A program made the translations under genes and the position numbers. From Chromera velia (Eukaryota), in contig JAHBMJ010000411.1 of NCBI GenBank assembly GCA_018398765.1, positions 1-48,601 of the forward strand: a DNA stretch of 48,601 nucleotides. The letters run 5' to 3'. This document shows, piece by piece, positions 27,146 to 48,264 of the stretch (position 1 is its first letter; every line of letters starts with the position of its first letter). The notes under the pieces were generated by a model. The model made no database searches and was not told the DNA's origin. It saw nothing but the letters and a program-made list of their open reading frames with translations.

Positions 27146-27770
27146 CGAGAGAGAGACAGTCAAGGAGACAGCAAAAGAGTGTAGAGGATTGGGGTTAAAG
27201 AAAAGAGAATTTGGAGCAGACTGCCTGGATAAGAGGACAGAGATAGTCAGACGCAGTCAAACTGCACAGGCAGCCAAAGGGTTGCAAAGGAAACGACGTG
27301 CCTGTCCTAGACAGATAGGATAGATAGCTGGTCAGACAGATTACTTCTTGAACAGACAAACAGATGGAGGAATATGCAAGGAAGTCTTGATGCACAACTT
27401 TCATGTGCATGCACAGAAGAAGAAAGAAGTGACGCGAGCACACACGAACCAGTGAGGTCTCCTTGAAGTTATCTTGCGATAATCATTTTCATACAGAATT
27501 TTTGTAAAAAAAAAAAAGTACACACCACAGACGTACCAGTGAGGTCTCCTTGAAGTTGTCTTGCGATTATCAGACGCCACACAGTCGCACCGGCGGCTCT
27601 CAAAATGTTCCTGCGAGCAACACGTGCGCGCGTGCATGCATGGAGGGCATGAGTGAAAGAAAGGAAGGAAGGAAGGAAGGAAGGAAGAACAAAACAAACA
27701 AAGAAAGAAAGAAAGAAAGAAAGACACAAACAAACAAACAATGAATGAAGGAAACAAAGAAGGAAGAAAG

Positions 27771-27808
<38 letters not shown>

Positions 27809-30800
27809 AAGAAAGAAAGAAAGAAAGAAACAAACAAACAGAGAATGAAGGAAACAAAGAAGGAAGAAAGGAAGGAAGGAAAGAAAGAAAGAAAGCAAGG
27901 AAGGGACAAACAAACAATCAAACAAACAAACAAACAAGCAAGCAAGCAAGCAAACAAACAAACAAGCAAGCAAGCAAACAAACAAACAAACAAACAAACA
28001 CACGAAGAAAACAAGAAAAGGTGCGTCTTGAATTCACGTGCTTCTGTCTCTCTGTGTGTTCCTATTTCGATTCGAAGGACCCATCGATGCAGACAAATTA
28101 GGGGGACTGCTGGATCGATTGGTCCACTCTTGCTTCACTCAACAGAGAGAGCTTTAGAGAAGCTCCTCCCAAAATCCCCAAGCAGGCAAGCAGACAGGTG
28201 AATTGACGTCACGGTGGAGAAAAGAAACCTATTATTTTATTCCTATTCTCTCTCTCTAATACTTCACATGCTTGGACACCTAGGCGCAAGTGGAAGGAAG
28301 GCAGAAAGTCTGGAGGAGATGAGTGGAGGAGTTTTTCATTCCCTCAAGAACAAAAGGTTTCGGTGTAAGGGCCTCGCGCATAGAAGCATTGCGACCGAGT
28401 TTGTTCGTACGGAGAAAAAATTTACAGAAAACACAAATTGGGCGGTCATGATGAATATGCAAAACACGAAAAGAAAGGGGAGATAAAAAACAGACCGACC
28501 GAAAAAGTTCAATTTCCTCAATGCTGAAAGGACGACATGAGAGGAAGATGAGGTCTGCTCCCTTCTCATCTACCTCATCCTGGTACGTTTCTTTTTTCCT
28601 GTCTCCCCGGAGGGCAGCCCTTCTCTCCTTCTCACTCAAGAGACTCAGCATGTCGGCACGAGAGACGTCCTTCTCATGCACCTCTCTGCAGGCATGCATT
28701 GATTTTCATGCATTTATTTTCATACAGAATCCAGGGAAAATAAAAAGAATTGTATATGAAAATAAAAACACGTCCTTCTCATGCACCTCTCTGCAGGCAA
28801 AATTGAGGGAGGAATGGAGCAGAGATTGCGCATCCTGTCTGGTGGTGCATTTCGCCATTTGGCCCATACATACCATTCCTTCTGGGATTTGTTTCTCTGA
28901 AGGGACTGGATGGCTTGCCTGCCTGCCTGCCTGATGCCGGGCATCGCACAAAGAAGTATGGACCAGTCATCTTCTAACTGTCTACCTGCGTCTATTTACA
29001 GCAATTGTCTGTCTCCAGCGAGTTTTCGTTTTCAGCACTTCATGAGCGCACGAAGAGGAAAACGACAAAGGACCCTTCGACATGTAAAGCAAGCCTGGCC
29101 TCCTATGGCAGACCTTCCACACTTTGCGTCTCTCTGAGTGCCGTCTCCAATTTTGTTGATCAGCTGCACTGTCCCTACAAGCCGCACTGCAGAGACGCCG
29201 TCCCCGAGACGGCGAATCCCGGCAGCCTCTCCGGCACGCCGACGGTCGGGCATCAGACGCGCCTGCAGGGAGACCCGCACACACAGAGACAGGGATGCCA
29301 TTTGAGTCATAAGGACGAGAATAGAAAGAGGCACACACACACACGCATACACACACGCACGTACGTGCGTACACGCATATGCCAGAATCAATTTTCTTAC
29401 GTGGAGCCAAAAGCGGCTTTCCGAAACGGAAACTATGTTCCCAAGACCCCAAACAGACAGCAGGTATCCGGCTTGCCTACTCACTGACTGACTCACTACG
29501 AATTCACTCATTCACTTTCTCACTTACTGACCCTGGCTCACACACCCGATTCTTCGAACAACACACCTACCTACGTACCTGAGTCATGAATGTGTTGTTT
29601 CCCCCGGCCCCCTTCTTCCCTCCCCCCTCATCTCCCAGAGTCCAATTGCCATGATCCTCTGGATTCTCAAACGCCAACGGCCCCAACAGCATGTTTCCGT
29701 TCAGCTGCCCTTTAGCCTTCCCCTTCCTCTCTACACCGTCCACCAGAGGATTCAAAAAGTGCTCCTCTGTCAAGTCAGGCACATACAGGACGCACATACG
29801 GTCCACACATTGTCCCACAAGGCCTGCGTTCAGAGGAAGACGCATGGCTCTCAGTCGCTCCCCCGTGTATTTTTTCTTTTCCTTGAACCTCATGCCGGTC
29901 TGCTTCGTCTCCCCAGCCTCCTTCTGGGCAGGAGAGAGAAGAAGGGAACCGTCAGAGGCGTCAAAAAACAAAATTCGCACAGTCTCAACCTGCACAAAAC
30001 AGGGATCAGAAACACAGCGCAGAGCACGTTTGTGTTTATCACCGTCCTTCCCTCTTTCTCTCCATTTTGCGTACGCATTTCATCTTTCTCATCCCAAAGA
30101 CTTTATGTGTCCATGACTCCACGCACAAGTCGATGTGCATACACATCGCCACCCGGGTTTCACCGACTGTTCCCATCAGGACCAACCACCCTCATCATAT
30201 TCCTCGAATGAGAGACACCTTCTGTTACCAGCAGTACAGAAACAGGACAGCCTCCATAAATGGACAAGTAAAAACACTGTGCACAAACACAAAGCACTGC
30301 GTTGCGTTGAAAGTACACCAGGTGCCCAGTGTCTTGGAAGAAACCTAAAAGCGTACCTGGAAGAATTCCTTCAGTTGCGCCTGTAGCATCTGCTCCAATT
30401 CAGGGAACCCCCTGCATTGGTACAGAGTCGCACAAATCTCCAGACAAGAGAACACCCGGTATTGCATCATCAGAGCACCACGATGGGCCTGCATCCGAGC
30501 CATCACAGCGCCAGCACAGTTGCAGAGAGTCTGCAGGACCTTCGAGTCGATCACAGTGAAGTTCTGCAGACAGGAGGGGAGAAGACACACGGAAGGAAGG
30601 GAGACGCAGTTACATAGCTAGGGGATGCACACGCACAAACAGAACTGGATACACGTGCAGCTTTGCAGAGAGAGCCATTGGATTCCATGATCGAAGGATC
30701 GACAGATCGAGGGATTTAGCTGGAATGACGAAAAAAGGAGCCAGAAAAGAGACACAGGAGAAAAAGTTGGAAGGGGGTCCTGAGCAGCCGGAATCCTGGT

Positions 30801-31573
30801 AACAATGAGCCGAGAAGATATGCAAAAGAAGGGTTACAGATGGGTTCTGCTCTACTCAGTCACAAAGAAAGAACAAAAACCGGAGGCCAAAGAAGCAATT
30901 AAGCCTGCAGGGGGGGAGGGATCGAGAAGGAAGACTGACCCTATACTCTGTCGGATCTCCCGTCTTTTTTTCTCTTTCTGTAGGAAGGAAGGAAGGAAGG
31001 AAGGAAGGAAGATACGCAGACAGAGAAAAGCAGGATGTTAAACGGATTGGCGCAAAGGGCCGCGTCCCTGTTTACTGCAATGCAGACAGTCTTTGCTTTT
31101 TGATTCACTGCAAAAACAACCTGAGAGGTATCCCGCAGATGAAAACGGTCATACGGGAGCACTTTACAGTTTCTTTCAGTCCGTCTCTTTATTTCTCTCC
31201 TGGCTGCATCTGTTGGCTCCTTTTTGTTTCTCTCGTCAAGCCTGGTTGCGCAATTAAGGAAGGTGCTCCTGTCCGAGAGTTTCCGTCGCCACTGACTGAC
31301 TGAGTGACTGACTGACTGGCTGGCTGGCTGACTGACTGACTGACTGAGTGAGTGAGTGAGTGAGTGAGTGACTGACTGACTGACTCAGTGACTGACTGAC
31401 TGACTGTGGACTTGAATCACTGCCAAGACTTTCGAGTTGCCCATGTTTGTGCACACGGCTGAGGCCAGGCAGCGCATCTGGCAGAGAGGAAGACTCCTTG
31501 GCCCTAGGCCCTTGAACACCGGAGTCAACTCTCCAGCCAGTGCAGTCTTTCTCTCTTGGGGAGGCCGGAATAC

Positions 31574-31612
<39 letters not shown>

Positions 31613-33150
31613 TACACGTTCGCGCATGCATTTGTCCTGCTTAGCACACGAAGAAGAAGAAAAAGAACGGAAGCGTTCCCGAGGGTCAACCGAAGTTTCA
31701 GTATCCCTTCCTCGCCCCCATCCCCCCAGAAAATGAAAACAGAGCAATTCCACTCCCCCGTCTCTTCCCTCCAACCCCACCACATGATTCCATCACTGTA
31801 TCTCTATCTGCATGACACCGACCCTCCAACCCCACCACATATTTTCATTACTCTACCTCTATCTGCATGACACCGACCAACCGACCAACCGACTGACCCA
31901 AACCTGGTGAAGGCCGTCCAGGTGGAATTTCGTTGGCTCGGACAGGGATGTTCTCCTCTCGACAACGTTCTTTAGCTCGGACTTCAGGAAAGGGTCCACA
32001 ATGAATGCCACAGGACGGACAGCGTGAGGGAGGGCCTGCTTGATCGTTGCGAGAAGCTCGACCATCGTGTCGTGCTGAGACCGTTTGCGCATCGCCGCGA
32101 CGCCGCACGAGACCATCCGGTGGAGCATCTGCTCCGATTGGACCTGCATGTACAAGGATGGACGGGCGGCCGGGGGCATTCATTCATTTGTGTGTGGAAG
32201 GAATGGGACAGGAGAGGGGGGCCATTCATCGATTTGTGTGTGGAAGGAATGGGACACGAGGGGAAAGGGTAAGCAGAAAGTTAGGGACTGAAGATGATGA
32301 AGCGTGCAACACTCTAGGAAGAAATGGAAGTTCTAACATGCGTCGATCGACAAAAAATTGGACCCCCATTACGTCGTATACACTCGCTGCACGTTGAAAG
32401 AAGGAGACCAAAGATAGATGAAAACGTCCTTGACAGACTGAAGGAAGACCAATCAAATCAATGCACGGACAGACTATATGGTTTCTTTCCCTTTGGACAG
32501 ACAGACAAACAGACAGACAAACAGACAGACAGACTATATGCTTCTTCTTCTTCTTCTCCCTCAGACAGACAGACAGACAGACAGACAGACTATATCATCT
32601 TCTCTTCACTTCACTTTTTCCGAACCGCTTCCTTTCTTTCGGACAGACAGACAGACAGACAGACTATATCGTCTTTTCTTCACTTCACTTTTTCCGAATC
32701 GCTTCCTTTCTTTCGGACAGACAGGCAGGCAGACAGACAGACAGACAGACAGACACACAAACAAGCAGACACAGACAGACAGACACACGGACGACAGACA
32801 GACTATATGTTTCTTCTTCTCCCTTCTTTTCTTCATGGACACAATAGACAAAAGAAGGAAAGCAACAAAGACAAAGGAACATCACGACAACTCAGACAAA
32901 GTGGGCAGGGGGCCCGAAAGGTGAGAGTTAAGCGCCCCTTGCCTCTCCACCTCCCGACAGACTTTCACGTGATCACTGGTTTCACACGCTACTCCTCTGC
33001 TGCTTCCACTCAAGACAAGAAAGAAGAAAAGAAAACAAGGCAAAAAAAACCAACAAAAATTAAAAATGACAACAAAACAGACAGACAGACAGACAGACAG
33101 ACAGACGGACAGACAGACGGACAGACAGACAGACACACGGACAGACAGGC

Positions 33151-33182
<32 letters not shown>

Positions 33183-33235
33183 TATATGTTTCTTCTTCTT
33201 CTCCCTCCTTTTCTTCATGACAGACAGACAGACAG

Positions 33236-33266
<31 letters not shown>

Positions 33267-33329
33267 GACAGACAGACAGACACACAGACGGACAGACAGA
33301 CAGACAGACGCACACACAGACAGACACAA

Positions 33330-33369
<40 letters not shown>

Positions 33370-35418
33370 GGACAGACCTCCGTGATCATCTGATCCCTCC
33401 GTGCCTGTCTCGCGATCTCTTCTCCCTCCACCCCTGCTGTGTGATCTCCTATCTTCGTACTCTCGTTCCATTTGTTCTTTCGGGGCTGGTGCACTGCGGT
33501 CTTCGGGGGCCGACAGGGGGTGCCTCCGGTTGGCGATTTGGAAGCCCGGGGGGATAACGCTGTGGAGACTGGGGGTAGGGGTAAGGGGGTTCGTTTGGGT
33601 GGATCTGTAGTGGGAAGCTGGAGAGAGTGGCTTTGGGGGGGAGGTTCTGTCTTCCGCCTCTCTTGCGGTGGTTGTGTTGCAGCTGTAAAGGAGAGACGTG
33701 CGTTCTTCTTCTTTTTGTCGTCCTCGGGATCATCGTCTATTTGCATCAGGGCTTGGGTTGGAAGATCGAAGGTCATCATACTCGTCGCTTGTTCTGTTGT
33801 GTCAATCAACCTCTCCCCTCCCTCTTCTTGCTCGTCTTGATCACTTACGTCTCCTTCCTCAATCTTCTCCTCCTCACCTTTGTTTGTGTGTGCATCTGCT
33901 GCAATTGCACCTCGCGGAGGGGCCTGTGGATCGTTACCCTCTTTGTGTTCGCCTGCGTTCTTTTTGGCTGCTGTCTGCTCATTTTCAGAAGAAGAGGAAG
34001 ACGATTCTCGCATTGACCCCAAAATCTTTAGATTCCTCTGTATGCCCTCAAGCCGTCGCTTTTCTGCTTCTGCTTTTCGGTCCGTTTCCTTCCACACCTT
34101 TTCATTCAACGTCCCCTTGTCCCCCTCTTCCTCCGACGCCCGTCTCCCTGCAAGCACCCGCTTCATCCCGTCAAACCCCGCCGCCGCCACCTGCGTCCCT
34201 TTGTTGAAAGGGCAGAAGGCTGCAGGGTCGTCTGGACCCAACGCGCGTCTGTCTGCATCCACTCCCACAGGTTCATGTGTCGAATCAAACATCCCCAAAG
34301 AAACCTGCACGCTACCCCTCCGATTCTCATATTTTACACCCCCCCCAAGGTCCACTCCCTTCTCTGTCTCTTTCTCCCGCTCGGATCGGGACGAGGCACT
34401 CGCCCTTGAGCGAGGAGACCCCGAAAGAGAGTGCCTGCTGCCTTTCTCCTTTCGTCTTCTGCCTCGCCGCTTCCTCCTGCCCCCCCCCCCTCCTCCTCCA
34501 CGCTCCGACTCGCTCACTCCCGACAATCCCAGAGAAGTTCTGGAGGCACTCAGGGATGAGGCCGTCATCAACTCAAGAGCACGGCCGTCCTGCATGCATG
34601 GAGGAATTAACGGAGGGAACACACACATACTTACACATGATTTTGAGGGGGCCGAACAAACAAGGAAAGAACGATGGAAGCATAGCGAAGGATATGGTCA
34701 AGACGAAAAAGAAAGAACGAAGAGCGAAACCAACGAGTGAAGAACATGGACGAAATTGGACAAGCAATCAGATCCACATGAGGGACCCAATACCTGTCTG
34801 TTGTGTCGCTACAGTTGCATGGCCAAGACAAAAAAACATCTCTTTTCGCTGTCCCATTTCACATATGTTCTTTCCGCTTCTCCAAAAGGAAAACTATTGA
34901 AACTGATTGCTTACTCACCGCCCACACAATTTGTGCCCGGTGTTTCTCCCCTTCTCTCCCACGTTCCCGCTTGCCCCCTCCGGAAATGACCTTCCCCCTG
35001 TCCACATCTTGCAACGGCTCTGCATGTATCAGGCATTGATTCATTGCAACAAAAGTTCATACGGGGGGAGCCACGGCAAAGTGGGAAATGATCAAGAAGG
35101 GAGGGCACGTCAGCCGGAGAGTCTGGTACACATTTTTCATCTTCGCACAACGCATTGTGACTGAAGGACGGATACACGTATTAGAGGATGATTCACTTTG
35201 TCTTTCTTCCTGGCAAGTATGAATCCAGAGAAGTTGGAACACTGGCAGGCGCATACAATGCAACGGAACCGCTAATGTTGATGTTGAATTTGTGTGCACT
35301 TGTTCAACACTTTTTTTCTCAGTTTTACAAAAAAGGGCATAAAAAGGGTCAAAGAACTCCTGAATGCAGAGGCCCTTCCTGTCAGAAGACCCGCACATGC
35401 ACAAGAAATGATTTTCGA

Positions 35419-35462
<44 letters not shown>

Positions 35463-36117
35463 CGGGCCTTCAAGGAAAAAGGCCCCCTCGTCCCTTCCTT
35501 TCCGAGGAGACTGAGCAGACGCCTCTGTCTTCTCAATCGCCATCGACGCCTCTCGAGGGCTTCCGTCTCCTTGTCGTTGTCGGTACCTCTCCCCTTCACT
35601 GAGACATACGCAGGCGGAGATGGAAGGAAGGTTAGACAAACAGGAGAAAGGATGCGAAAGAGGATGGGCAGGGAGGGCTCTGTTGAGTGTGAAGTGACAG
35701 AACAGAGATGCCAACACCTGAAGTGGCACTGTTGTGTGGTTGGTTTTTTTTTCTGCCTCTCGTTCTGCGGCTCTACCCTCTTTTCATCTATCGATTTTTG
35801 TATTTGAATGAATGTCCCGAGTACACCGTCTCGAGCTTCAACAGCCTCCTTCGTTCAAAATGAGCCCCTCTATTCTACCTGCAACACAACACGCTCCTCC
35901 TCTGCCAGGCGAATGAACACTTTTGTCTTCTTCAGTCTCCTCTTGCCAACAAATTCAGGAGACAGACAAAGAGGGTGCATGCTGCCACCATCATGCAGGC
36001 TGACCCACCTAGAGTCCGAACTAGAGGAGGAGGAGGAAGAAGCGCCCAAGTCCCCCTCCCCCCGCACTGCTCTGAGACGTCCCTCCCTTCCTCTCGCGGC
36101 CCCAGGAACGCCTCCTG

Positions 36118-36161
<44 letters not shown>

Positions 36162-37680
36162 TGTGGGTGCGTGGATGCTCATGTTTACACACGACAGAGA
36201 GACCGCATGCAAATCCAGGCTCCTGGTCTTGTTGTCTATCGCTTTCTGCCTGACTCATGGACTAAGGGGGGATGGCACTGGCTCGCAGGTTCATTGAATG
36301 ATGGATGCAAGCACGTGAGGGAGGCTTGACTGACAGACCCGCAGAGAGTTGACGAATCATTTAATGAAAAGAGAAGTACAAATAAACAAGGGAAGGCTGA
36401 CCTCCTCTCTTCTGGACTCTGGCCTTTAGCTCGGCGTTTTCCCTCTGGGCCCTTCTGAGGCGCCTCCGAAAGTCGGCTGCTTCCTGAAAGAGCACAAAGA
36501 GACAGAAAAAAAGGATGCAAACGAGCAAAATTTGAAGGGAGGCGGGAAAAAAGGACGTCCAGAAGGAAGGAAAGAAGGAAGAATTGAAGGGAAGACGGGT
36601 GACCAGACCAACGAATGATTACGAGAGCACAGCGCCTTACTCAGCTAACCTTTTTGTTTTGTTTGGCCTCTTTGACGAGGTCACGTGCCCACATGCATTT
36701 ACTTTCTATATGCTCTGAAAAAGAATTCTGTATGAAAGTAAATGCATGCTCAGCTGACCTTTTTGTTTTGTTTGGCCTCTTTGACGAGGTCCCGTGCCCA
36801 CAAGTTTCGAATTCGTTCTGAGGTGAACACAGAGGGAACCTCAACAGTTTCCGTTTCCCCTTCCCGCCCCTCGGTCGTTCCCCATTTCCCCCCCCCTTCT
36901 CTCGTCCTTTTCGCTTCTTCTTCTTGTGCAGTCTCCCGCGCGGTTCCCGACGAGAGGGGGACCAGCCGGCTGCCTGCCTCCCGTCTGCCTTCTCCAATGC
37001 TTCTGCTGTCCAACTGTTGTTTTAGCCTCTCGATCCTGCAGGGAGGCAGGCAGGCAATCACAATTGATCATTCAGTCATCAGTGCATAGCCAAACAACGT
37101 GTTGTTCTGATCTGGACGCATCCACAGCCCTGCACATCGAATATACACGAATGCGGCCACAGGATGCAAACGCAGTGTAGTATCTACGGTAAACTGGAAC
37201 TTGCTGGCCACATTGTTGCCAACGAACAGACAGACAGACAGACAGACAGACTGACTGACTGACTGACTCTTCCTGCTGCTGTGTGACAACAGATCGAAAA
37301 TTCTGTACGACCGAATTGGTTGTTTCGAGACGTTGGCGGATGTTTTGGAATTCCGAGGCAAAGATCATCTGAGAGTGTTCTCCTTGTTGTGTCTGTCTGT
37401 GCGAGGAGAGAGCAGTCCCTTCATCAGACTCAAGACCAGAGGAAGGGGGGAAGGGGTTCTGGAAGTGGTGTTGTTGGTGTTGCCTCAAGGAAGTTGAAAT
37501 TGGTTGTCGCTTTACCCTCTGCGTGGCGGGAGCGGTAGACAGACTCTTCCTGGCGTGCACAGTGTCTGCACGTCCTGCTGCTGCAGGTGTGGATAGGGTT
37601 TGTTCGGCTGCTGTGATGAACTCTTCGTGCCTTCGCCATAGGGAGCTCGGCTTCGTCTTGGGTCTCTGTTGCATGAACAT
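26949..37680 (-). CDS. Multi-exon protein with N-terminal coiled-coil/low-complexity region and tandem GAF domains
   Basis: Probable start MFMQQRP at 37680. Exon peptides: ...[51 protein letters not shown] (GAF-1); 29989-29579 [10 protein letters not shown]...[34 protein letters not shown]...[43 protein letters not shown] (GAF-2, NK...F..E motif). The last exon 27079-26949 reads [14 protein letters not shown]...*. Several internal exon boundaries are uncertain. Confidence 0.7.
27444..27572. mobile_element. Short insert family copy C with 42-bp flanking direct duplication
   Basis: Repeats 27444-27485 and 27531-27572; insert TTTTCATACAGAATTTTTGT(A)12GTACACACCACAG. Confidence 0.7.
28665..28799. 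mobile_element. Short insert family copy B with perfect 30-bp flanking direct duplication
   Basis: ACGTCCTTCTCATGCACCTCTCTGCAGGCA at 28665-28694 and 28770-28799; the insert contains CATGCATTTATTTTCATACAGAAT...TATGAAAATAAA. Confidence 0.75.
36640..36802. mobile_element. Short insert family copy A with 54-bp flanking direct duplication
   Basis: Repeats 36640-36693 and 36749-36802 (2 mismatches). The insert has a perfect 15-bp inverted repeat CATGCATTTACTTTC / GAAAGTAAATGCATG around AAGAATTCTGTAT. Confidence 0.8.
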
Positions 37681-37954
37681 CGTTCCAAAAGTTTGACTAG
37701 TGTTGTTTGCTGGGATGCATTGTTTGCCTTCGCGCAGTGTGGATGTTTCCCTGTCTTTTCTGAAGCAAGGACACAACTTTTGTCAGACAGTCAGAGGAAC
37801 GCTCAAACATGCTGGCAGGAAGGCTGATCTTCTCTGCTTGAAGCTTCAAAGAAGTACATCGATCATTGAAGTGCTGTCAAGGTGGGCAGGTCCGGGTCAA
37901 GCGAACCATGAATGTGCGTTTAGCGCGCCCAACGCATCGCCCGCCCGCGCGGGG

Positions 37955-38045
37955 TGCATGCATGTTGGCCCACGCGGACCGCGGGCCCGGCCATGATTTG
38001 TGTGCACTACAGCCAGCCAGGAGTCAGACAGAACACAAATTAAGG
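37955..38045. promoter_or_regulatory. Putative bidirectional promoter between the GAF gene and ESS2
   Basis: GC-rich island with TGCATGCATG (37955), CGCGGACC (37973), GGGCCCGGCC (37983) and AATTAAGG (38038), the same words in the same order as upstream of RPS25. Confidence 0.5.
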
Positions 38046-38384
38046 AAGCATTGCCGCAAAATTGCCGGTTTGTTTGCCTGATGACAACCTCGGTCTCTGT
38101 CCTGTTCTCTCATGTATCAACTGAGTCTCCGTTCTGCCCCAGAGGTCTTTTCGGGTCGATTTGGAATTGGAAACGGATTGATCTACTGTGCTTTGTTGGG
38201 TGGAACTGATTCTTCTTCTTTAACTCATTCTTGTGAGTCAACTGGCTCTTCAGGTTGCTCTCCTTCCCTGAGTGCCCTTCCCTTGGGCACAAGAGACAGG
38301 AGAGGATCTTGCTCTGGTTCTTGAGTCGCTGGAGAAGCTGCAAAGTATCTCCTTTCCAGTGTCTCTGGTTCAGGAAAAAAGAAG

Positions 38385-40538
38385 ATGGAGGACATACCCG
38401 GCTCCCCTGTTCCACCTGTTGCTGTTGCGGCTGCTGCAGCAGCTGCTGCTGCTCCTGATTCTGCGACCGGAGTAGCGGCAGCAGATGTGTCTTCGGCCCC
38501 CTCTGCTCTGGCCCTGAACAAGAGAGGTGAGGGTGAGGTGGTGTTGAGGACAGCAGAAGAGAAACACGTTCTTGTTGTGAAGGAAAGGAGAGCCCAAGAG
38601 CTCCAACTCGCAGTAGCAGTCCCCGACCCCTATCCAAGAACGCGGGCCCCTCCCCGTGTGATGTACGAAGAGGACTATGTGGGGATGCTGGATGAGATCA
38701 TAGAAAGAGACTACTTCCCCGACCTGCCCAGATTGAGGGCCTTCAATGACTTTGCCGAAGCCTCCAGAAAGAAAGACACAGCCAAAATGCTGGAGGCACA
38801 GGCGCGTCTGCTCATTGCGTCCACGCCAGCGGGTACCGAGAAGGGCACCCCGGCCCGGTCTGCGTCTTCTGCAGTACAGGGGCAGGGGGAGGTGTCGGAT
38901 GCAGGTGGGGAGTCGCGTGTTTTGGCTGTTCCAGGCACGTCTGGGTCTCGGGTCACATTGGTAGATGGACGTGAAGTGAGTGTGAAGAAGAGTATGCGGT
39001 TGGATGATTTCCAGCGAGTGTACACTAGTGAGGACAACGCATCGTTCGAAACGATCATGGAGAAGGAGATGGAGGTCAGGAGGGCAACAGAGGGATGGAT
39101 TGAGGATAAGCAGAAAGAACACAACCTGAGAAGGCAATTGAATTTGCATGCGATTGAGGACGGTAAGCCTGCCGATTCTCTTTTGTACACCAAACACACA
39201 GCAAGAAACAATCTAATGTTCCCTGGAAGAGCGTTGGAAGATCAGCAGACGGGGGACACCAAGCAGACCGCATTGGCTGTTCCAGCCAAGGCCGAAAACA
39301 AACAGATCGCCTTCCGAAATACCCGATTCACGACAGCCCAGCAAGATTCAGACGAGCAAGAACAGAGACAGAAAGCAAGTCTCGCCGCCAAGCAGGCAGA
39401 GGCAGACGATGAATCCTTCCACCGCCGTTTCCTTCAGACTGGGGAGCTCCCTCCTTCCGCTAGCCAGACGGGGGGTGGGGGGGGTCTGCAAGATCCCGAA
39501 GACCTCCAGCTTCCCCTGGGTAGGGGGGGGTTTGCGTATGTAGGCACACCCTCATTGAACCCCGATTCCATTGGGGCTTCCCCTCTGATGACTTGGGGGC
39601 AGGTGGCCTCTACGCCGCTTCTGTTGGGTCCGAAGGGTGAGGGGCCGTCTTTTGAGTTGAGGGATCCCTCGAACAAGGAGACGTTAGCTTTGAGACTAGC
39701 AGAGAGCGCAGGGAAGAAAATTCGAGATAAAAAGAGAAAAATGACAGATGAGCTGCGGTCAGTTCTGAATCCTGGCAGCATTATTCGGCAGGGGACAGGG
39801 GGGCAGACGGCGCGGGTGCAGGGGGGGAGTGGGAGAAGGGAGCGTCCGGGCACGTCTTTGATCTTGAGGGGGAGATTCGGGACGAATGAGACCCTGTCGA
39901 TTGATCGTCGGTTGGCCGACCTAGCTGCCAAGAACCCTGCGTGTGCCCAGATCCTGAATTCCATGGCCAGCAAGGGTAGGCTTCAGGGTTTGGGGGGGGA
40001 CGCTCAGCTGCGTCAGAGTTATTCTGGGAGGAGCAGGAGGGGGTCGGATGTGCGGTCCGTCATGTCGGTGGAGGGGGGCAGCCGTGGTAGTAGCAGTATG
40101 AGTATGCAGGGGAGGTCTCAGAGGGGGGGAGGCTCAAAGCGCCCCCACCCCAATGGAAGTGAGTTGCCTGCTGCAGCGGCTGCGGCAGCTGCAGGAGGGG
40201 GGGAGGGTAGTGGGAAAAGACCCCGTCACGGTGTTGCGGCACCGTCTCAACAGACAGAGAAAGATGGGAGGGCTGGAGGTGCCTCCGCTTCCTCCTCTGC
40301 CCGTGTTGGCGTGCCTGCTTCCTCCTCTTCCTCTTCAGTGTCAGCCGACGCTGCCTTTGCTGCCCTCGGCTTCGTGTCAGATGCCAGAGGGATGACACCT
40401 GCAGGGCGGGATGGGGAGACGAGCAAGAGGGGTGAGACTCAGGCAGAGAGGGAGAGAGCGTCGGGGGTGAAGGGGGGAAAGGCCGGCGAAGGAAAGGACA
40501 GCGGACTCACTGACGATCTGCTGCTGTTTGGTAATTAA
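38385..40538 (+). CDS. ESS2: Splicing factor ESS2/DGCR14 (ES2 domain), 717 aa, single coding exon
   Basis: Family motifs EEDYVGMLDEIIERDYFPDL, LDDFQRVYTSEDNASFETIM, ARNNLMF, GFAYVGTPS, SPLMTWGQVASTPL, and C-terminal LTDDLL. Confidence 0.92.
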   Translation: MEDIPGSPVPPVAVAAAAAAAAAPDSATGVAAADVSSAPSALALNKRGEGEVVLRTAEEKHVLVVKERRAQELQLAVAVPDPYPRTRAPPRVMYEEDYVGMLDEIIERDYFPDLPRLRAFNDFAEASRKKDTAKMLEAQARLLIASTPAGTEKGTPARSASSAVQGQGEVSDAGGESRVLAVPGTSGSRVTLVDGREVSVKKSMRLDDFQRVYTSEDNASFETIMEKEMEVRRATEGWIEDKQKEHNLRRQLNLHAIEDGKPADSLLYTKHTARNNLMFPGRALEDQQTGDTKQTALAVPAKAENKQIAFRNTRFTTAQQDSDEQEQRQKASLAAKQAEADDESFHRRFLQTGELPPSASQTGGGGGLQDPEDLQLPLGRGGFAYVGTPSLNPDSIGASPLMTWGQVASTPLLLGPKGEGPSFELRDPSNKETLALRLAESAGKKIRDKKRKMTDELRSVLNPGSIIRQGTGGQTARVQGGSGRRERPGTSLILRGRFGTNETLSIDRRLADLAAKNPACAQILNSMASKGRLQGLGGDAQLRQSYSGRSRRGSDVRSVMSVEGGSRGSSSMSMQGRSQRGGGSKRPHPNGSELPAAAAAAAAGGGEGSGKRPRHGVAAPSQQTEKDGRAGGASASSSARVGVPASSSSSSVSADAAFAALGFVSDARGMTPAGRDGETSKRGETQAERERASGVKGGKAGEGKDSGLTDDLLLFGN

Positions 40539-43296
40539 GAAGTAAGGGTGAACACACGCACCTACGCACGCACACGCATGATCTGAAAATAAGGGGGTAG
40601 AGCGAACGACCCTTCATCACTGCACACGCACACGTTCTGCCAATCGCTGTGCTCTGGTACAAATAAGTTTATTTATTTATTCCCCTGTCAGATGGCCTGT
40701 TGCTCTTCCCTTCCTTGTTTGGTTGAGTGCCTGCCTGCCTGGCTGCACGTCATTGACCGGAGGGATCGGTGCGGTCCGTCCGTTCTCGTCATCCCCTTAA
40801 TTTCCTTTAATTCCATTGTGTGCCGTCTTTCTCGATCGAGCGACCTCCGAATCTGTCTCTGCCTCTCTTGTCACTCGATTTGTGTTGGAAGCAGAAGAGA
40901 GGGGCAAAACCAAAGTAGCTCTTGAGATCCCTCACAACTCCCTCTGGGTGGAGGGGTGGGTGCATGGGTCGTGTACCGCCAGGGCGTATAAGGTGTTTCC
41001 TTGCATGCATCTATAGGCATGCATAATTGATCGATGCATACATATTCATACTGAAGAGCGAGATAAAGAACCAAACAAAAGATGTATGCGGACATAGTAT
41101 CTGTGACGTGGGTTTCAAGTTGTTTTCACTAGTAGTTTTCATTTTTATGATATCATCATCATCATCATCATTCACCATCGCTATCGGCCCATAAATGAGC
41201 GTCTAGCGTTCGGCTGGTTCGATACGCAGCTGGACATACTGTTAGGGCAGTCCTCGATCTCCTACAAAGGAAGATAATACAGGCAAGAACGGCTTTCCCG
41301 TGATGGCCACTCACTGAATTCCCGTGGCAAGGCAGAGTGGTTTTACATCGTCACACGATAGAGCAACTAATATAGAGTAAATCAAGGATCAACAGACGAT
41401 TTGAATTTTTTAATCAGTTTAGACTTGTATGCTAGTTGAATTATGCTAAGAATTATGCCACTATATAGCTAGTTTCTTAGCTGGTTTCTTTTTAGGTCCT
41501 ACACTCTAAAGTTCTAAAGAAAAAAAGAAAGAAAGTTCATTTGGGTTTTGCTTCTGGTTTTGCTTGTTTCTAGCTTTACTTGAGAAAGACTATCAATCAG
41601 GTCCCCTCTTTCATTTAAATCGAAAGACTAGGTTGCTTACCAAACGTTTTATAAGCTTAATCGCAGGTTTTATGATGCTTTCTCCACCTAGCTCCTTAGT
41701 ATTCATCTCCTACTCGCCCCTCCCTTTTGTGTCCCTGACCATTGAAAGTAACACGACAAGCCCAAAACAAACAGAAGAAAGACATCTCACGTTACTTACC
41801 CTCGATCGAATTCCTTTCTCGAGAGGAGAGAAGATGTTCAACCTTCTCGGTATGTGTACTAGTGTCTGCAAGTGGGTAAGGGATTTTCCTGTGTTACGGT
41901 CTACTTAGACCACAACTTAAGTCTTTGATTGTTCTAAGACGTTTTGCTGTCTGTGTCCTTTGGCAAACATCAGGAGAATTACAATGGATGAAATGTGAGC
42001 AGGTGGCAGACTGAGAAGCGAAAGGTCCCGGGTTTGATTCTCATCTCCATCTCTTTTACCTTTTACGAGAAGCTGATTTTGGCCCCGCACGCGAAACCGA
42101 TCCCGCGTAGCGAGCCACAACCGAGACTGCGCAGTACAGTAACACCACAAGAATCAGAAATTAGCCGATTATGAAAGAAGAAAAATGCAGAGCCGAATAG
42201 TTCGAGTCGCATCCAAATTCAGTGGAGGACGATCGACCTCTCCAACTCTTAGTCATGATGAGTCATCACCTTCAATAAACTCGGATCGACTCAACCTCTT
42301 TGAGATCTCATCCAAACCTTCCTGCAGATACAAAGATACAAACATTCACACTGCAAACAGGAAACATAGTAGAGATGCCTAAACATACAGAAGGAATCCA
42401 GACAAGAGTTCGAGCAGAGAAGGCCCCCGGACACAGGCCTTGGGCGAGCCCCTTGGTCGCCGTCTGGGCTAGCTGGAGCCTTTGGCTGCGTGGCCCCCAC
42501 CCTCACGTGATCTCCTTAAAAGACAGACGTGCGCTAGAGCCCTCTAAGACTTCAGACTCAGCCTTCTAGAGTGGCAAACAAACCTGATAGAATGACTGAC
42601 CTTCATATATCTATACAACCTTCTAGCTCTCACCTCTTTGGAGTTAGATGGTGCCTGCGTCCTCTCTCATAGCGTGAGAGTAGGTCGTAACACCTGGTTG
42701 CAGTGGAACTGTTACCTCATCATCTGCTTGGACAGATCTAATTCCTTGTAGGTCAGATCTATGCTTTCCTTCTTACCTGTCCGTAAACTTGAGGAGACAC
42801 GCTTCCATCCGTGCAAGTGAAAGAAAAATAAATATGTGCTTTAGATAGAATGAGGCCATGCACACATATCCCTTGTGTCTTCCTGAGAACTTAGAGATCG
42901 GTGCCTTGCATCTAGGTATGCATAGCTGTCCTCAATATGATGAAGGTGCGTGATTCATCTCAGAGAGATCGGTGGATTGGCTTCCCCTGTGTAGCTGAGA
43001 GCATGATCGCACAGGCGCTGTATCGTCCTTTCTTCTTTTCTTCTTCATGTAAGCGAGAGAGTCTGGTATCAAAAAGCAGTGTTTCGCGGGATATCTTTTG
43101 TTTTCCTTGCAGTGCACTCCATGCATGGCAGGAATGCGTAGCACTGCATAGTGACTGTACCCGATCTCGCATACCTGGACTGACTGGTTGCAGCGCGATG
43201 CCGAAAGCGCCTGTTTTGCCTGTGCCGATGAATAGGGGTGCTAAGATAACGTGAATGGACTGAGATCTTTGAGGGAAAAGAAACGACTATACAAAT

Positions 43297-43392
43297 TGTG
43301 AGCCTTGTCCGCGTCCCGCAAGCCTTGCGCTTGGGTGCGCTGCGAAGAGGTGTGGCGGCGGCAAGCATGGCGGGACGCGCGCAAGGCTCACA
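43297..43392. repeat. GC-rich long inverted repeat (hairpin/MITE-like)
   Basis: TGTGAGCCTTGTCCGCGTCCCGC (43297-43319) pairs with GCGGGACGCGCGCAAGGCTCACA (43370-43392) at 21/23. Weaker pairing (GACTAT/ATAGTC) extends outward. Confidence 0.75.
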
Positions 43393-43927
43393 TAAATAGT
43401 CATGACATGCTTCTGTTCTTTGGAAGGGATGGATGTCTTTCCAGTGTGTGCTTTATTAAAGTATAAGAGGAACAAGCCAGTAGATCGATCTCTATTTAAC
43501 CAGCCACTTCTTAGAAGATAAAAAAATTCTATCGAGTGCTGGCCGAAACTTTCCAAAACTGGCCCCGAAAGTACAACAAACTCTAGCAATACTGACAAAC
43601 TGCTAAACCAGTAAACTACCATATAGTAGCTGTTAAAACTCCATTGCATAGTTTTTAAATTTAATTAGTTTACTCCTACTAGATCTGCTACCAATTTTAA
43701 CCAATATTTGTATAATTTCTAGTACAGTTTCTACTAGTAGTATGATTTTAATACTTATAAAATTAGAAAAAAATTCTAATCGGATAAAGACTTCTTTTTG
43801 CGTAAAAAAAAGAAAAGTTAGTATAGCAATATCAGTCGTTGAAGTTCTCAATGAATAGCTGAGAGAACTGACCACAATAATATTTATAATTTATGCAAAT
43901 TCTTGCTATTTCAAACTTGTTTTTTTA

Positions 43928-46720
43928 TTATGTGGCTAAGCCTGGAGTCTTCTCGGCTCTTTCTATCAACCGTTTTGCCTCTTTGATCTGGTCCGCAACG
44001 CTGAGACTACCCGAATCTACATCCTTGGGATTGTATAAACATGCTGCCACACATCTGCACATACGTTCATTTTCAAACAGAATTCTTTTTGTGTACGAAA
44101 GTAAATGGGAGTGTACAAACATGCTGCCGCACATCTGCACATAAAAATGAAAAGTGAAAGAAATATTTTTTTTTGGCTCCCTCCACACGGCATGAACTTG
44201 GCTCTCAGCATCGAATATTGGAATTGAGCGAAAGCCAAAGAGAGATTACAAGAACCAGGCCTCTGACGTTGACTGAGCAGTCTCTTTCGTCTCTCATTTG
44301 AAGAGTCAAACAATCATTCAACAGAACAAAACACGAATCAGGAATATGTATGTGAAAAAATCATTCTTCATCGCTTTGTCGCCGCCCACAAAGATAAATG
44401 GATGAAAGACGTGCCCTAGGATCAGGTGACCTGATTTCACCTCTAAGTAACTTTTCCGATTGTCTGGTTCGCGATCTAAGCAAATAGGACGCGAATCTGG
44501 GGGGTTTTCTGCTGTTCTCAATAAGACTACAGCCGTCGACTCTTCAATCTCATTTGATTGACTGACCCAGAATGATCGTAGAAAGGGGTTTTCATGTGCT
44601 TGTAGTCAACAAACGACAAATCATACGATGCAGCGCTGGTCGACACCATCATATTGTCGGCGTTCATGGCCATCTCCCACCAATCCTTCGACTCCCTTCC
44701 GTCTCCTGCAAACAGGAGAAGAGAGAAGAAAGAAGGGAAAATTGTCCTGCTCCTTCGACAAAGGATTGCGCATTCATGCGAAAACTCGGAAAGGAAGGCG
44801 GAAGAATGGATCGATCGATCAATCATCTCAGTAAAACACGAAGTTGTCTGTCTCACTCTCCATTTCCCCTCAGCCCAAAACGCCCACCTGTAGCCTGTGC
44901 ATCACACTCTATGATCAGTTTGTGTGTGATCAGCAGGTTGGCCTTCTGGAAAGGTGTGCTAGGGGAAAGGTCGTGGGTCTCTGTGAGGAGTTTGGCCCCG
45001 GGTTGGAGAGGCAGGCCGAAACATTTGGTCAGGCACTGGTGGACCTCATGTCTGTTTCTTTTCAGCTGCACGCAGGGAGGGAGGGAGGGAGGGAGGGAGA
45101 GAAGTTGAAGGAAGTTCGACTGAAAAAATAATTACCTGGGAGATCGATGGAAGGTCTCTCTGATTTGTTTTCTCAAGGGACACTAGACAGCGATTTTCGG
45201 AAAAAGAAATAAGAAAGGAAGCTCTTGCATTTCGGCTTTGTACACCGATCGAAGAAGCGAATCGATCAGCGGATAAAAGCAGACCTCATTCTTCAAAGAG
45301 ACTTCCTGGCAGAAGGAGGGAAGTTGCGCGACAGTTGTGGGATAAAGACCCCCATGATTGGAAGGAAATGGGATGGGTGAGAACGCTTCTTCCTTCTTTT
45401 CACGGACTGTCTGAGTGACTGAGTGTCTGACCTTTCTGCACACTGAAACTTTGGGAGAGAGGGAAAGAGCAGCCCCAAGAACATCCCCCCCTCTGGTCTC
45501 TGCCTCGGCTCTCGCCTTGATGCTTGCAGCCGGGGAGTCTTCTCCGCTTTTTCGTTTCCTGCCGACATATTTGCTCTTCTTTTTTGAGGGTGTAGAGAAT
45601 TGTCGGACGGCAAGCTTGAGAGCCGTGCGCATAACATCTCTTGGAGGATACTCGTGAAAACACCTGATGGGGAGGAATGAAGCGTGTGTATACGCATGCA
45701 GCGGGTTCTCCATCTATGATTCTGTGTGAAAAAAAAGAGAAGTGGAAACGGAAGAAGTCAAGCTGCTGTCTGGTGCACGAATCTGGACTGACGTCATTTC
45801 GGTTTTCCTTGTTTTCAGCCTATTTTCTCTTCGGGTCTTCTCTGCTTCTCACAGACAAGCTAGGAGGTTGTGTTGTGTCATGCTTCATGGAATGGAAAAG
45901 GAGCAAAAGACAGGCACTGTCTGACAAAACTTGCATGCAGCAAAACAGTGGCACCAGACAGACAGACAGAACGAATTCACTCACTGTGCGAGAAAGGAGA
46001 AGGATGAAGGAACGCGAATGCATGTCACGCCCATCTGCTCACTCATGCATGTGCTCATTCGTTCACTCACCGGGCGAAGGGAGCAGCAGCCTGATTCGGT
46101 TTTTTGTCATCTGCCGGGTTGGAGGCCCACCTGCAAGCACGTGCATGGACGAGCAGCAATTTTGATCCGATGGAATTGACACCCTCCCTCTAGCTCCTCT
46201 TATGCCTTCCTTACTTGCTTCCTTGACTCCTCGCTTGCTTGCTTCCTTCTTTTTCTCCTCTCTCTCCTTCTCCACTATGAATTGTTCTCATGTTTCATTA
46301 TTTTGGTCTGGGCAAACTCTCTTTTATTTCCACCGGAAAGAATTCCTTTCATTGATTCAATCTGGGGGAGAGCATCTTCATTAGTTATTGCCAATCAATC
46401 CGTTTGTCTAAATTCCATCTTGATGCATGTGCATCCAGGAGATTTGAAAATCTCTTCTCTTCTTGATGCATGTGCATCCAGGTGATTAGAATATCTCTTC
46501 TCTTCTTTTAATTCTCTCTTTCGGCTTACTGACGGACGTCTCGAGAGGCAGCTGGATCATTGGGGACTTTGAGTTCTCTCTCATCTCGTCGAATTCTGCC
46601 AGCTCCTTTGCCCAGACCCTTTCTTTCATGTGCACAAGCGTCTTCAGGAGGGCACGGGCAAGGAGGAAGTAAGTTGGGGAACTCTCAGTCAAATATCTGC
46701 ATGCAAGGGTTCACATACAC

Positions 46721-46763
<43 letters not shown>

Positions 46764-47119
46764 TACACAGAGAGAGAGACTCAGGGAGAGAGATGGAAAC
46801 AGAGAGAGAGCCTTTCACGCAAGTCAGCAACAGACGGACACAAATTGATTATTAAGGCTCTCACTCTCTCTCTATTTCTTGCTCTCTCTCTTTCTACTCC
46901 ACTGCAGGAAGCACCCAAACAGGAGGGGTTCCAGAGATGAGACAGCCCTGAGTTTTCCTTCCTCGGTGCACCATCAAAAAGCACACCCAACCTTTGCAAA
47001 CCGAGAGGGGTCCTGTAGCCATGCATAGACTGACAGACAGACAGACAGGTAAGAGATATGCACAGGCATATAAGAGACAGACTATATGTTTCTTCTTCTT
47101 CTCCCTTTTTTTCTTCATA

Positions 47120-47152
<33 letters not shown>

Positions 47153-47941
47153 AATACAGACAGACAGACAGGTAAGAGATATGCACAGGCATATAAGAGA
47201 CAGACTATATGTTTCTTCTTCTTCTCCCTCTTTTTCTTCATAAGAGACAGACTATATGTTTCTTCTTCTCCCTTCTTTTCTTCATAAGAGACAGACAGGC
47301 AGACAGACAGACAGACAGAAATACAGACAGACAGACAGACTCACAGACAGCAAAACGGCCAAAAAAAGAAAGCGACACCGTCAGCGAGACGAAGCCCGGT
47401 CCCTCTCTCTTTCAATCTCTTTCTACGTCTTTGTCTCTGCCTCTCTTACTGCCCTCATTCATTCCCTCACGCACTTGCTGCTGATGTGCACCCCCATTTT
47501 GGCGTGCATCCAGTGGGACGACGAGAGGAGAGACCGGAACCTCTTCTGAAAACACGAGAGCAGCCCAATGCTGTCCTGCAGACAGACAAAGTTTAGGCAA
47601 CGAAAGACGGCGGGGAGGGAGGGCAGCCCATAAGAGAGTGAGGAAATAAACGAAGGAAGGGGCAATACAAGGCAGGACGAACGTAAGAGACAACTTAACG
47701 AAAAATGGTCAAGGGAACAAGCAAAGAAAAAAGGGAAGCAAGAAGGCCAAAAAACCAGATCCAGCCCTCCTTGTGCGTCCCTCCTCCCACATGCAGACCG
47801 ACATACCTGCACTTCCTTCTGCCACAGCCTTGCCAGGTCGTTCTGGACGGAAATTCTTTTCTGCTCGTCCCCCGACGCCTTTGCCGTCTCATAGTCCACT
47901 CTGTATCCCTTGGCAACATTGTCGAATCCGTCCTGTGCCAC
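43928..47941 (-). CDS. Multi-exon hypothetical protein, 5' end unresolved; weak RAP-domain-like segment
   Basis: Open exon-like segments bounded by CAG/GT: MAQDGFDNVAKGYRVDYE...LWQKE, DSIGLLSCFQKRF..., YFLLARALLKTLVHMKERVW..., CFHEYPPRDVMRTALKL..., HEVHQCLTKCFGL...PFQKANLLITHKLIIECDA, and final CVAACLYNPKD...GLAT*. The exon chain is not fully reconstructed. Confidence 0.5.
44026..44143. mobile_element. Short insert family copy D with 38-bp flanking direct duplication
   Basis: Repeats 44026-44063 and 44106-44143 (3 mismatches); insert CGTTCATTTTCAAACAGAATTCTTTTTGTGTACGAAAGTAAA. Confidence 0.75.
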
Positions 47942-48264
47942 GGCCTGCCAAGGGTCCTTGAAGCTCCTGCGGGGAGGTGACGGCAGGCAGGCTGAATTGA
48001 AACTAATAGGAGAAGGTAGGAATGCAGGCAGGCTGAATTAAAACTGATACACCACCCGGCTGTGTGGGCGAAGTTCTAAGCACAATCATCGTGTCGTTTT
48101 AAGGCGACAGCTTGGTTTCAAACTTCTTGGCTGCGAAAGGTCCTTCTGGCACAACGTTTCGGTTTGAGAAGAAGAAAAGAGAAGATTCAGCTGACTAGCT
48201 GGTAAGTGATCAGAAGTCAGACCGACAGAGACTCACAGCTACCGACGGAGAAGTTTGGAGATGG

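Follow-up and report, generated by a model that had tools for sequence, protein, structure and literature searches.

What could place inserts of 42–75 bp between two copies of the surrounding host sequence, each copy 30–54 bp long? The question is raised by contig JAHBMJ010000411.1 of Chromera velia (assembly GCA_018398765.1), whose positions 1 to 48,601 (hereafter the window, the whole stretch that was analysed) contain four loci, A to D, built as repeat, insert and repeat. An initial annotation, made from the letters alone, had described them as homologous, hairpin-like inserts of a mobile element that it could not assign to a described family. We find that the inserts belong to a real, high-copy family with an unusual footprint, which is apparently undescribed: no account of this repeat, or of mini-inserts with long duplications in chromerids, was found in the full-text literature searched (most subscription journals and Repbase fell outside its scope), although the sequence may already sit in supplementary repeat libraries as an unclassified repeat.

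Four inserts between copies of host DNA

All four loci were recovered at the positions first proposed, with the identities between duplication copies given in Table 1. A 13-bp motif common to the inserts, TTTCAWACAGAAT, has 4 matches in the window against 0.02 expected, a count reached in 0 of 100 shuffles, and each of the 4 matches is straddled by an exact repeat of 14–30 bp, compared with 2.9% of 5,000 random positions (repeats of at least 12 bp); the check for flanking repeats suggested by the initial annotation thus comes out in its favour within the window. None of three near-miss motif sites is straddled by a repeat. Approached from the side of the repeats, the window holds eight gapped, non-microsatellite repeats with copies up to 500 bp apart, and four of these are loci A–D; the remainder comprise two in an array at 47070–47269, one pair of 18 bp (47349/47737) and one of 26 bp (47983). 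The last of these (47983–48049, 24/26 identities) flanks a 15-bp purine-rich spacer unrelated to the insert family. A profile search of the window gave no clear fifth copy, the best other site (45713–45734, E 0.38) having no duplication. At locus C the repeat possibly extends to 47 bp, 43 of them identical; read by eye, the duplication may reach further left in degenerate form (27400–27444 and 27500–27531); some of the A12 run, together with the bases following it, would then be duplication and the true insert about 20 bp.

Table 1. Positions of the duplications, inserts and associated features in the window.
Feature	Coordinates	Strand	Description
Locus C, left duplication copy	27444..27485	+	42 bp; 39/42 identities with 27531–27572; possible start 27439
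Insert C	27486..27530	+	45 bp; single piece of the family end (reference about 12–29), then A12 run and further bases; second arm absent
Locus C, right duplication copy	27531..27572	+	42 bp; pairs with 27444–27485
Locus B, left duplication copy	28665..28694	+	30 bp; 30/30 identities; carries the minus-strand acceptor used in RNA (28686–28687) and 21 exon bases
Intron removing insert B and one duplication copy	28686..29113	-	428 bp; GT-AG; reading frame open on both sides
Insert B	28695..28769	+	75 bp; tandem 14-bp and 24-bp end pieces, 10-bp linker, inverted 25-bp piece
Locus B, right duplication copy	28770..28799	+	Original acceptor and pyrimidine tract; unused in the RNA contig seen
Locus A, left duplication copy	36640..36693	+	54 bp; 52/54 identities
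Insert A	36694..36748	-	55 bp; full 34-bp end, 8-bp linker, inverted 15-bp piece; hairpin fold
High-copy core (reference family end)	36716..36749	-	34 bp; sharp outer boundary at 36747–36749
Locus A, right duplication copy	36749..36802	+	52/54 identities; carries likely minus-strand splice donor (36757–36758)
Locus D, left duplication copy	44026..44063	+	38 bp; 35/38 identities
Insert D	44064..44105	+	42 bp; 31-bp end piece (begins within the duplication) and inverted 16–19-bp piece, joined almost directly
Locus D, right duplication copy	44106..44143	+	38 bp; 35/38 identities

Contigs of sequencing runs were aligned to loci A (at a likeness of at least 80%) and B. Runs X1 and X2 are DNA (196 and 201 million letters), and X3–X8 are RNA-type by predicted label. 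At locus B, one X2 contig covers 28530–28930 whole with 0 differences (X2 is possibly the window's own source), and at locus A, contigs of both X1 and X2 run from the left duplication into the insert (36653–36743), likewise with 0 differences; among the pieces listed, none crosses the right junction of A. Sequencing data, on which the initial annotation had made the duplications depend, hence span the structure whole at B and confirm the left junction at A.

Beyond the window, one RNA-type contig (X4 record 10) carries a B-like left part and an arm of about 11 bp, ends exactly at TGCA, and has flanks sharing a 13-bp string that continues up to the edge of the 30 displayed letters. It is the sole outside locus at which both flanks could be compared, and it adds a fifth duplication-bearing locus, the duplicated length being at least 13 bp and probably 25–35 bp. 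An assembly artefact, or local tandem duplications that fell by chance around older copies of the motif, is hardly credible as an explanation of this pattern. The window is microsatellite-rich and contains a gap of Ns, and an empty site was never seen, all of which would suit such a reading; the single contig that spans B, however, largely refutes it for that locus, true substitutions separate the duplication copies at A, C and D, exact repeats enclose all four motif copies, compared with about 3% of random positions, and the layout at the fifth locus is identical. The proposal of a mobile element with long, variable duplications is therefore upheld as to its footprint, with 30–54 bp at four loci and a fifth locus outside, while insertion itself is deduced from the anatomy because the empty site did not appear.

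A high-copy end joined differently in each copy

The unit that the inserts share is not a hairpin element, as the initial annotation had it, but a one-sided end of about 34 bp; the hairpin differs from copy to copy and is absent from C. When the core at locus A is taken as reference, the homology of the inserts is borne out, since each resolves into pieces of this one end: 34 and 15 bases in A; 14 and 24 in tandem with 25 inverted in B; 31 with 16–19 inverted in D; and 17 alone in C. All pieces begin at or near the outer boundary of the reference end. Inverted repeats at both ends are intact in A, substituted or truncated in B and D, and lacking in C; the perfect 15-bp arms of A and the 12-bp arms of B were correctly annotated, except that the first two bases of the left arm of A fall within the duplication. 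Compared with shuffles, A folds strongly (z -5.8) and B marginally (z -1.8), whereas neither C nor D forms a fold. The junction between the arms is different in all five two-armed copies read (A, B, D, X4 record 10 and an X2 contig in which the two arms are joined without any loop).

The outer end is sharp. X1 contigs leave the alignment at 36747, 36748, 36749 and 36750 in numbers of 18, 21, 54 and 13, passing into unrelated flanks (agreement 0.36–0.43); the 13 at the last position are consistent with chance run-on, and the cluster at 36747–36749 includes three bases that overlap the target. The inner boundaries, among the loose-end rows listed, are scattered, and contigs across the hairpin of A show many different insertions and deletions at 36706–36714. 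A sharp outer end with scattered inner ends may reflect a fixed 3' end with variable 5' truncation, as in non-LTR elements, under a putative polarity, the alignments being too short to display a gradient. At the seven junctions in the window, the end overlaps the target by 2–3 bases at three, by one base at three and not at all at one; an overlap of at least 2 bases at 3 of 7 has a P of about 0.007, an approximate value since the reference was derived from A. Within the end, TTTCA repeats at a spacing of 17 bp, and the inner loose ends carry this repeat on. The palindrome TGCATGCA, which matches the outer end of the element, has 16 occurrences in the window, about 20 times the uniform expectation, and may be a source of priming or target sites. 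The same palindrome is abundant in coccidian genomes.

The initial annotation had expected a high number of copies genome-wide, and the sequencing data agree: 535 X1 contigs and 530 X2 contigs align to locus A, nearly all on the 34-bp core. Summed depth at 36722–36734 peaks at 56,746 in X1 and 30,777 in X2, against 15–27 on the unique flanks, ratios that correspond to about 2,100–3,200 and 1,900–2,100 copy-equivalents, respectively. The contig counts are the firm figure because summed depth gives no true copy number, so that a value of roughly 2,000 core copy-equivalents is a rough one; extrapolation from four copies per window would give some 16,000, a speculative number. In X1, the long arm of A reaches a depth of about 50,000 and its short arm one of about 1,200, and the whole hairpin is spanned by about 40–65 copy-equivalents across X1 and X2. 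Two other organisms (X9 and X10; 782 and 677 million letters) returned 0 contigs on B, which makes chance alignment unlikely, though this control concerns B only and is no proof of absence. Exact pattern scans likewise gave 0 matches in viral contigs, metagenome contigs and prokaryote genomes, collections to which the host probably does not belong.

Other contigs extend the range of structures. Four from X2 continue into an A-rich tract, and record 11 of those aligned to B is a head-to-tail tandem; head-to-tail tandems have 1–11 bases between units, and other tandems 22–40. The left end typical of B recurs in several contigs: the left part of its insert (28692–28729) has a depth of 290–360 against 17.5, about 16–20 copy-equivalents, and the idea that this tandem left end is unique to B was accordingly rejected. 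A shared left end implies that some structures are inherited or recurrent. A tandem array of hairpin, 30-bp spacer and hairpin was also observed in X1, X2 and X3 (depth 130, 50 and 9), its spacer reading on the opposite strand as an acceptor-donor-like CAG/GTGAG; the array may have grown by insertion more than once, or the duplication copies may have undergone unequal crossing-over.

These data bear on whether the hairpin itself could be the replicating unit, as a self-propagating RNA of about 55 nt that resembles a promoterless short interspersed nuclear element (SINE), is copied whole by one-sided target-primed reverse transcription and has fast-diverging loops. The strong fold of A and the copy-equivalents that span its hairpin speak for such an RNA, as do 15–16 contigs that end exactly at the far arm and the occurrence of the core in an RNA-type run (89 X3 contigs), and stem-loops are known at the 3' termini of SINEs and of long interspersed nuclear elements (LINEs) (PMC3747384). 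We nevertheless consider this origin quite unlikely: the second arm matches the one reference over differing lengths (about 11–25 bp), the loop-free palindrome included, two of the four inserts lack a fold, the five longest X1 pieces among those listed across the A hairpin differ by 3–10 letters, and the RNA contigs may be mere host transcripts. The window has no Rfam match at gathering score and no ARAGORN tRNA match that could provide a structural-RNA head of SINE type for inserts of this size, and the weak generic hairpin matches obtained by E-value on A lie far below the gathering score and were taken as chance.

Splice sites and neighbouring sequence

At locus B the duplication contains a splice acceptor together with 21 exon bases, and an RNA-type contig (X4 record 9) matches 28530–28687 and resumes at 29116. 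The RNA therefore uses the downstream copy of the acceptor, and insert B is spliced out; the upstream copy retains the old pyrimidine tract and has no X4 cover. At locus A, an RNA-type contig (X3 record 24) breaks off at 36758, a further 84 letters being unplaced, and the sequence there makes a splice donor GT in the right duplication copy likely. A new 109-bp intron created by insertion A between the AG/GT sites of its two copies was considered and rejected: no such joint was seen, and X3 has no cover at 36592–36682. The duplication thus straddles a splice site at both loci that have RNA cover (28665–28799 and 36640–36802), directly at B and by deduction at A, a coincidence that could reflect survival bias or targeting and is limited to two cases.

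Because the acceptor of B was duplicated and splicing in the RNA goes to the new copy, insertions of this kind can move a splice site and leave the gene intact. More broadly, the family is a plentiful repeat whose small size puts it below the reach of routine annotation, each copy in the window duplicates 30–54 bp of host DNA, and it is likely to be a steady source of micro-duplications.

The window is eukaryotic in character, with Pfam matches to ES2, a hybrid histidine kinase and ribosomal S25. The best match of ES2 is from Vitrella (36%), and dinoflagellates are among the later named matches, which suits a chrompodellid alveolate as host. The hybrid histidine kinase (HisKA, HATPase_c and receiver) lies at 23998–25945 in adjacent open reading frames (ORFs), and hydrophobic ORFs lie before it. 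The regions 7185–7535 and 8116–8461, some 930 bp apart, share matching blocks of 34 and 69 bp and are probably a tandem exon duplication. A second family of short inserts, with nine copies all on the plus strand, was noticed at 32471–33220 and 47079–47300; each starts with TATAT right after an AGAC microsatellite unit, continues for a variable 20–55 pyrimidine-rich bases and returns to the microsatellite, and the copies may represent pieces of another, (AGAC)n-targeting element that arrived by target priming.

Origin of the inserts and comparison with known systems

With about even confidence, we read the inserts as short pieces of one 34-base end, made by a Penelope-like or non-LTR (LTR, long terminal repeat) reverse transcriptase that is primed from each nick of a staggered cut and halts early. 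An endonuclease would nick both strands 30–54 bp apart, and each free 3' end, often CA or GCA, would pair with the palindromic end of a template RNA and be extended. Synthesis, halting after 15–34 bases, would then stop at the A-run some 30 bases in or restart, giving tandem pieces and A-runs; finally, the two extensions would be joined at an ever-different junction, and gap filling would produce the duplication. One-sided events would yield copies like C. This model covers the single fixed start on both strands, the arbitrary arm lengths, the new junctions, the restarts, the one-armed copies and the overlap of 1–3 bases. In the twin priming of L1 the second primer is extended on an internal stretch of the RNA, whereas here both sides start at the same end. 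The model could also do without a long parent element, a dedicated template of about 34 nt being copied in the fashion of telomerase, with restarts, at genome-wide breaks of wide stagger and onto the two 3' ends of each. We regard this variant as unlikely; if true, it would amount to a minimal system of retro-insertion from two ends, responsible for thousands of 30–50-bp duplications and for the repeated rebuilding of splice sites in a free-living organism closely related to the apicomplexans.

Several observations weigh against two-ended reverse transcription. Neither a reverse transcriptase nor an endonuclease or transposase was found in the 203 window ORFs scanned with Pfam (24, 114 and 65; overlapping and low-complexity ORFs were left out), where the matches other than those named above were three weak, sub-threshold ones, and no mobile-element domain appeared. 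No long, well-agreeing extension led toward a parent element (agreement among the inner loose ends was 0.46–0.56 only), and the fall in depth at 36716 stems partly from the linker of A itself and forms no clean truncation gradient. Most outer junctions also fit a precise TG...CA end, given 1–2 substitutions, and the tandem left end of B is shared. No joint of an empty allele was detected at A (X1, X2, X3, X7) or B (X2, X4), although contigs drop rare variants and this absence is consequently uninformative either way. The ends in the window overlap the target by 1–3 bases, whereas the Penelope-like protein PAc starts in vitro at a template site without homology to the target (PMC11167929). Finally, the chromerid repeat table lists LINEs at 2.7% of the Chromera genome and has no Penelope row (PMC4501334); the same source assigns 7.1% of the genome to unclassified repeats.

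As the main rival reading, the inserts could be miniature inverted-repeat transposable elements, internally deleted copies whose inverted ends read TG...CA and whose subterminal repeat has 17 bp, mobilized by a DDE transposase that makes long duplications and prefers TGC at the joining sites. The initial annotation had set the length of the duplications against any DDE transposase, which was overstated: IS481EU makes duplications of 4, 15 and 25 bp within one family, and those of IS1202 reach 24–29 bp (PMC10045372). Non-autonomous class 2 elements, moreover, make up 3.3% of the Chromera genome (PMC4501334). Inverted arms are present in A, B, D and two outside copies, a TG start fits most junctions with 0–2 substitutions and X4 record 10 stops at a matching terminus, the spaced TTTCA repeats are continued by the inner loose ends, and the left end of B recurs. 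Like the inserts, IS481EU and IS1202 have short inverted ends starting with TG and duplications far above 10 bp. We still hold a transposase origin to be rather unlikely. Locus C, with a single truncated arm followed by an A-run, nevertheless has a duplication identical at 39 of 42 positions; the right arm of D is 2–4 bases short; arm lengths and linkers are different in every copy read; tandems exist without a duplication between the units; and most contigs run 1–3 bases past CA. The family has neither the uniform length nor the uniform internal sequence that would be expected of miniature derivatives of the IS481EU or IS1202 type, all five junctions differing and one shared left end being the exception. 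Duplications of 30, 38, 42 and 54 bp exceed the classes of both groups, those of IS481EU being about 4, 15 and 25 bp (with only four window loci, a longer series is possible), and its TNT..AYA terminal signature is absent here, where the ends read TGC...GCA; IS481EU is reported from parabasalids only (PMC10045372). Were the DDE reading true, the duplication lengths of eukaryotic transposases would be extended to 30–54 bp.

The variability of the junctions also invites explanations without a dedicated reverse transcriptase or DDE transposase, namely a Replitron-like HUH element with fuzzy ends, or break repair by a host polymerase using an abundant sequence as template. Microhomology and heterogeneous junctions do suit end-joining repair; repair polymerases, on the other hand, usually copy nearby DNA and not one fixed end at hundreds of loci. 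Replitron-1 of Chlamydomonas resembles the family in its variable duplications and fuzzy ends (PMC9977147, PMC10288648). Replitrons, however, have short direct terminal repeats and a length of 0.9–3.6 kb, and most are without a duplication, whereas the termini here are inverted wherever two exist (PMC10288648). Taken together, we judge both routes improbable.

Under two-ended reverse transcription and under a DDE transposase alike, the unusual enzyme should be findable in the genome. If priming at both nicks is correct, the copies form a large and countable natural archive of the priming and joining of the two strands, which for Penelope-like elements is still to be resolved.

Among known systems, Penelope-like elements (Poseidon with its protein PAc, and the Naiad and Chlamys clades) leave partial head-to-tail tandems and an inverted, truncated copy beside the main copy (PMC8557442, PMC11167929), an arrangement seen in miniature in A, B and D. 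They have a terminal segment of 30–40 bp between two start sites of the reverse transcriptase (PMC8557442), to be compared with the 34-bp core, although nothing beyond the core ties the family to a pseudo-LTR, and the purified protein cleaves and extends both target strands in vitro (PMC11167929). Their ORF joins a telomerase-like reverse transcriptase to a GIY-YIG endonuclease, of which the 203 window ORFs scanned gave no example. The inserts differ in their small size and in having no ORF, pseudo-LTR body or ribozyme; duplications of 30–54 bp are not given as a hallmark of Penelope-like elements in the parts of these sources available, and no report of such elements in chromerids was found in the literature searched, itself available in part. 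Non-LTR elements such as Dualen-4b of Chlamydomonas and R9 of rotifers likewise have duplications that are long or variable, with a length that depends on how far apart the nicks lie (126 bp for R9; for Dualen, a median of 900 bp among those longer than 50 bp; PMC9977147), whose counterparts here are 30, 38, 42 and 54 bp; they can also have short-repeat tails that allow slippage (PMC3747384), and both ends of the break are extended by reverse transcription in L1 (bioRxiv 10.1101/2024.12.14.628481). Unlike these elements, the family has yielded neither a body nor a partner LINE in our data. By analogy, then, its closest parallel in operation appears to be the ends of Penelope-like or non-LTR elements in their truncated, inverted and tandem forms.

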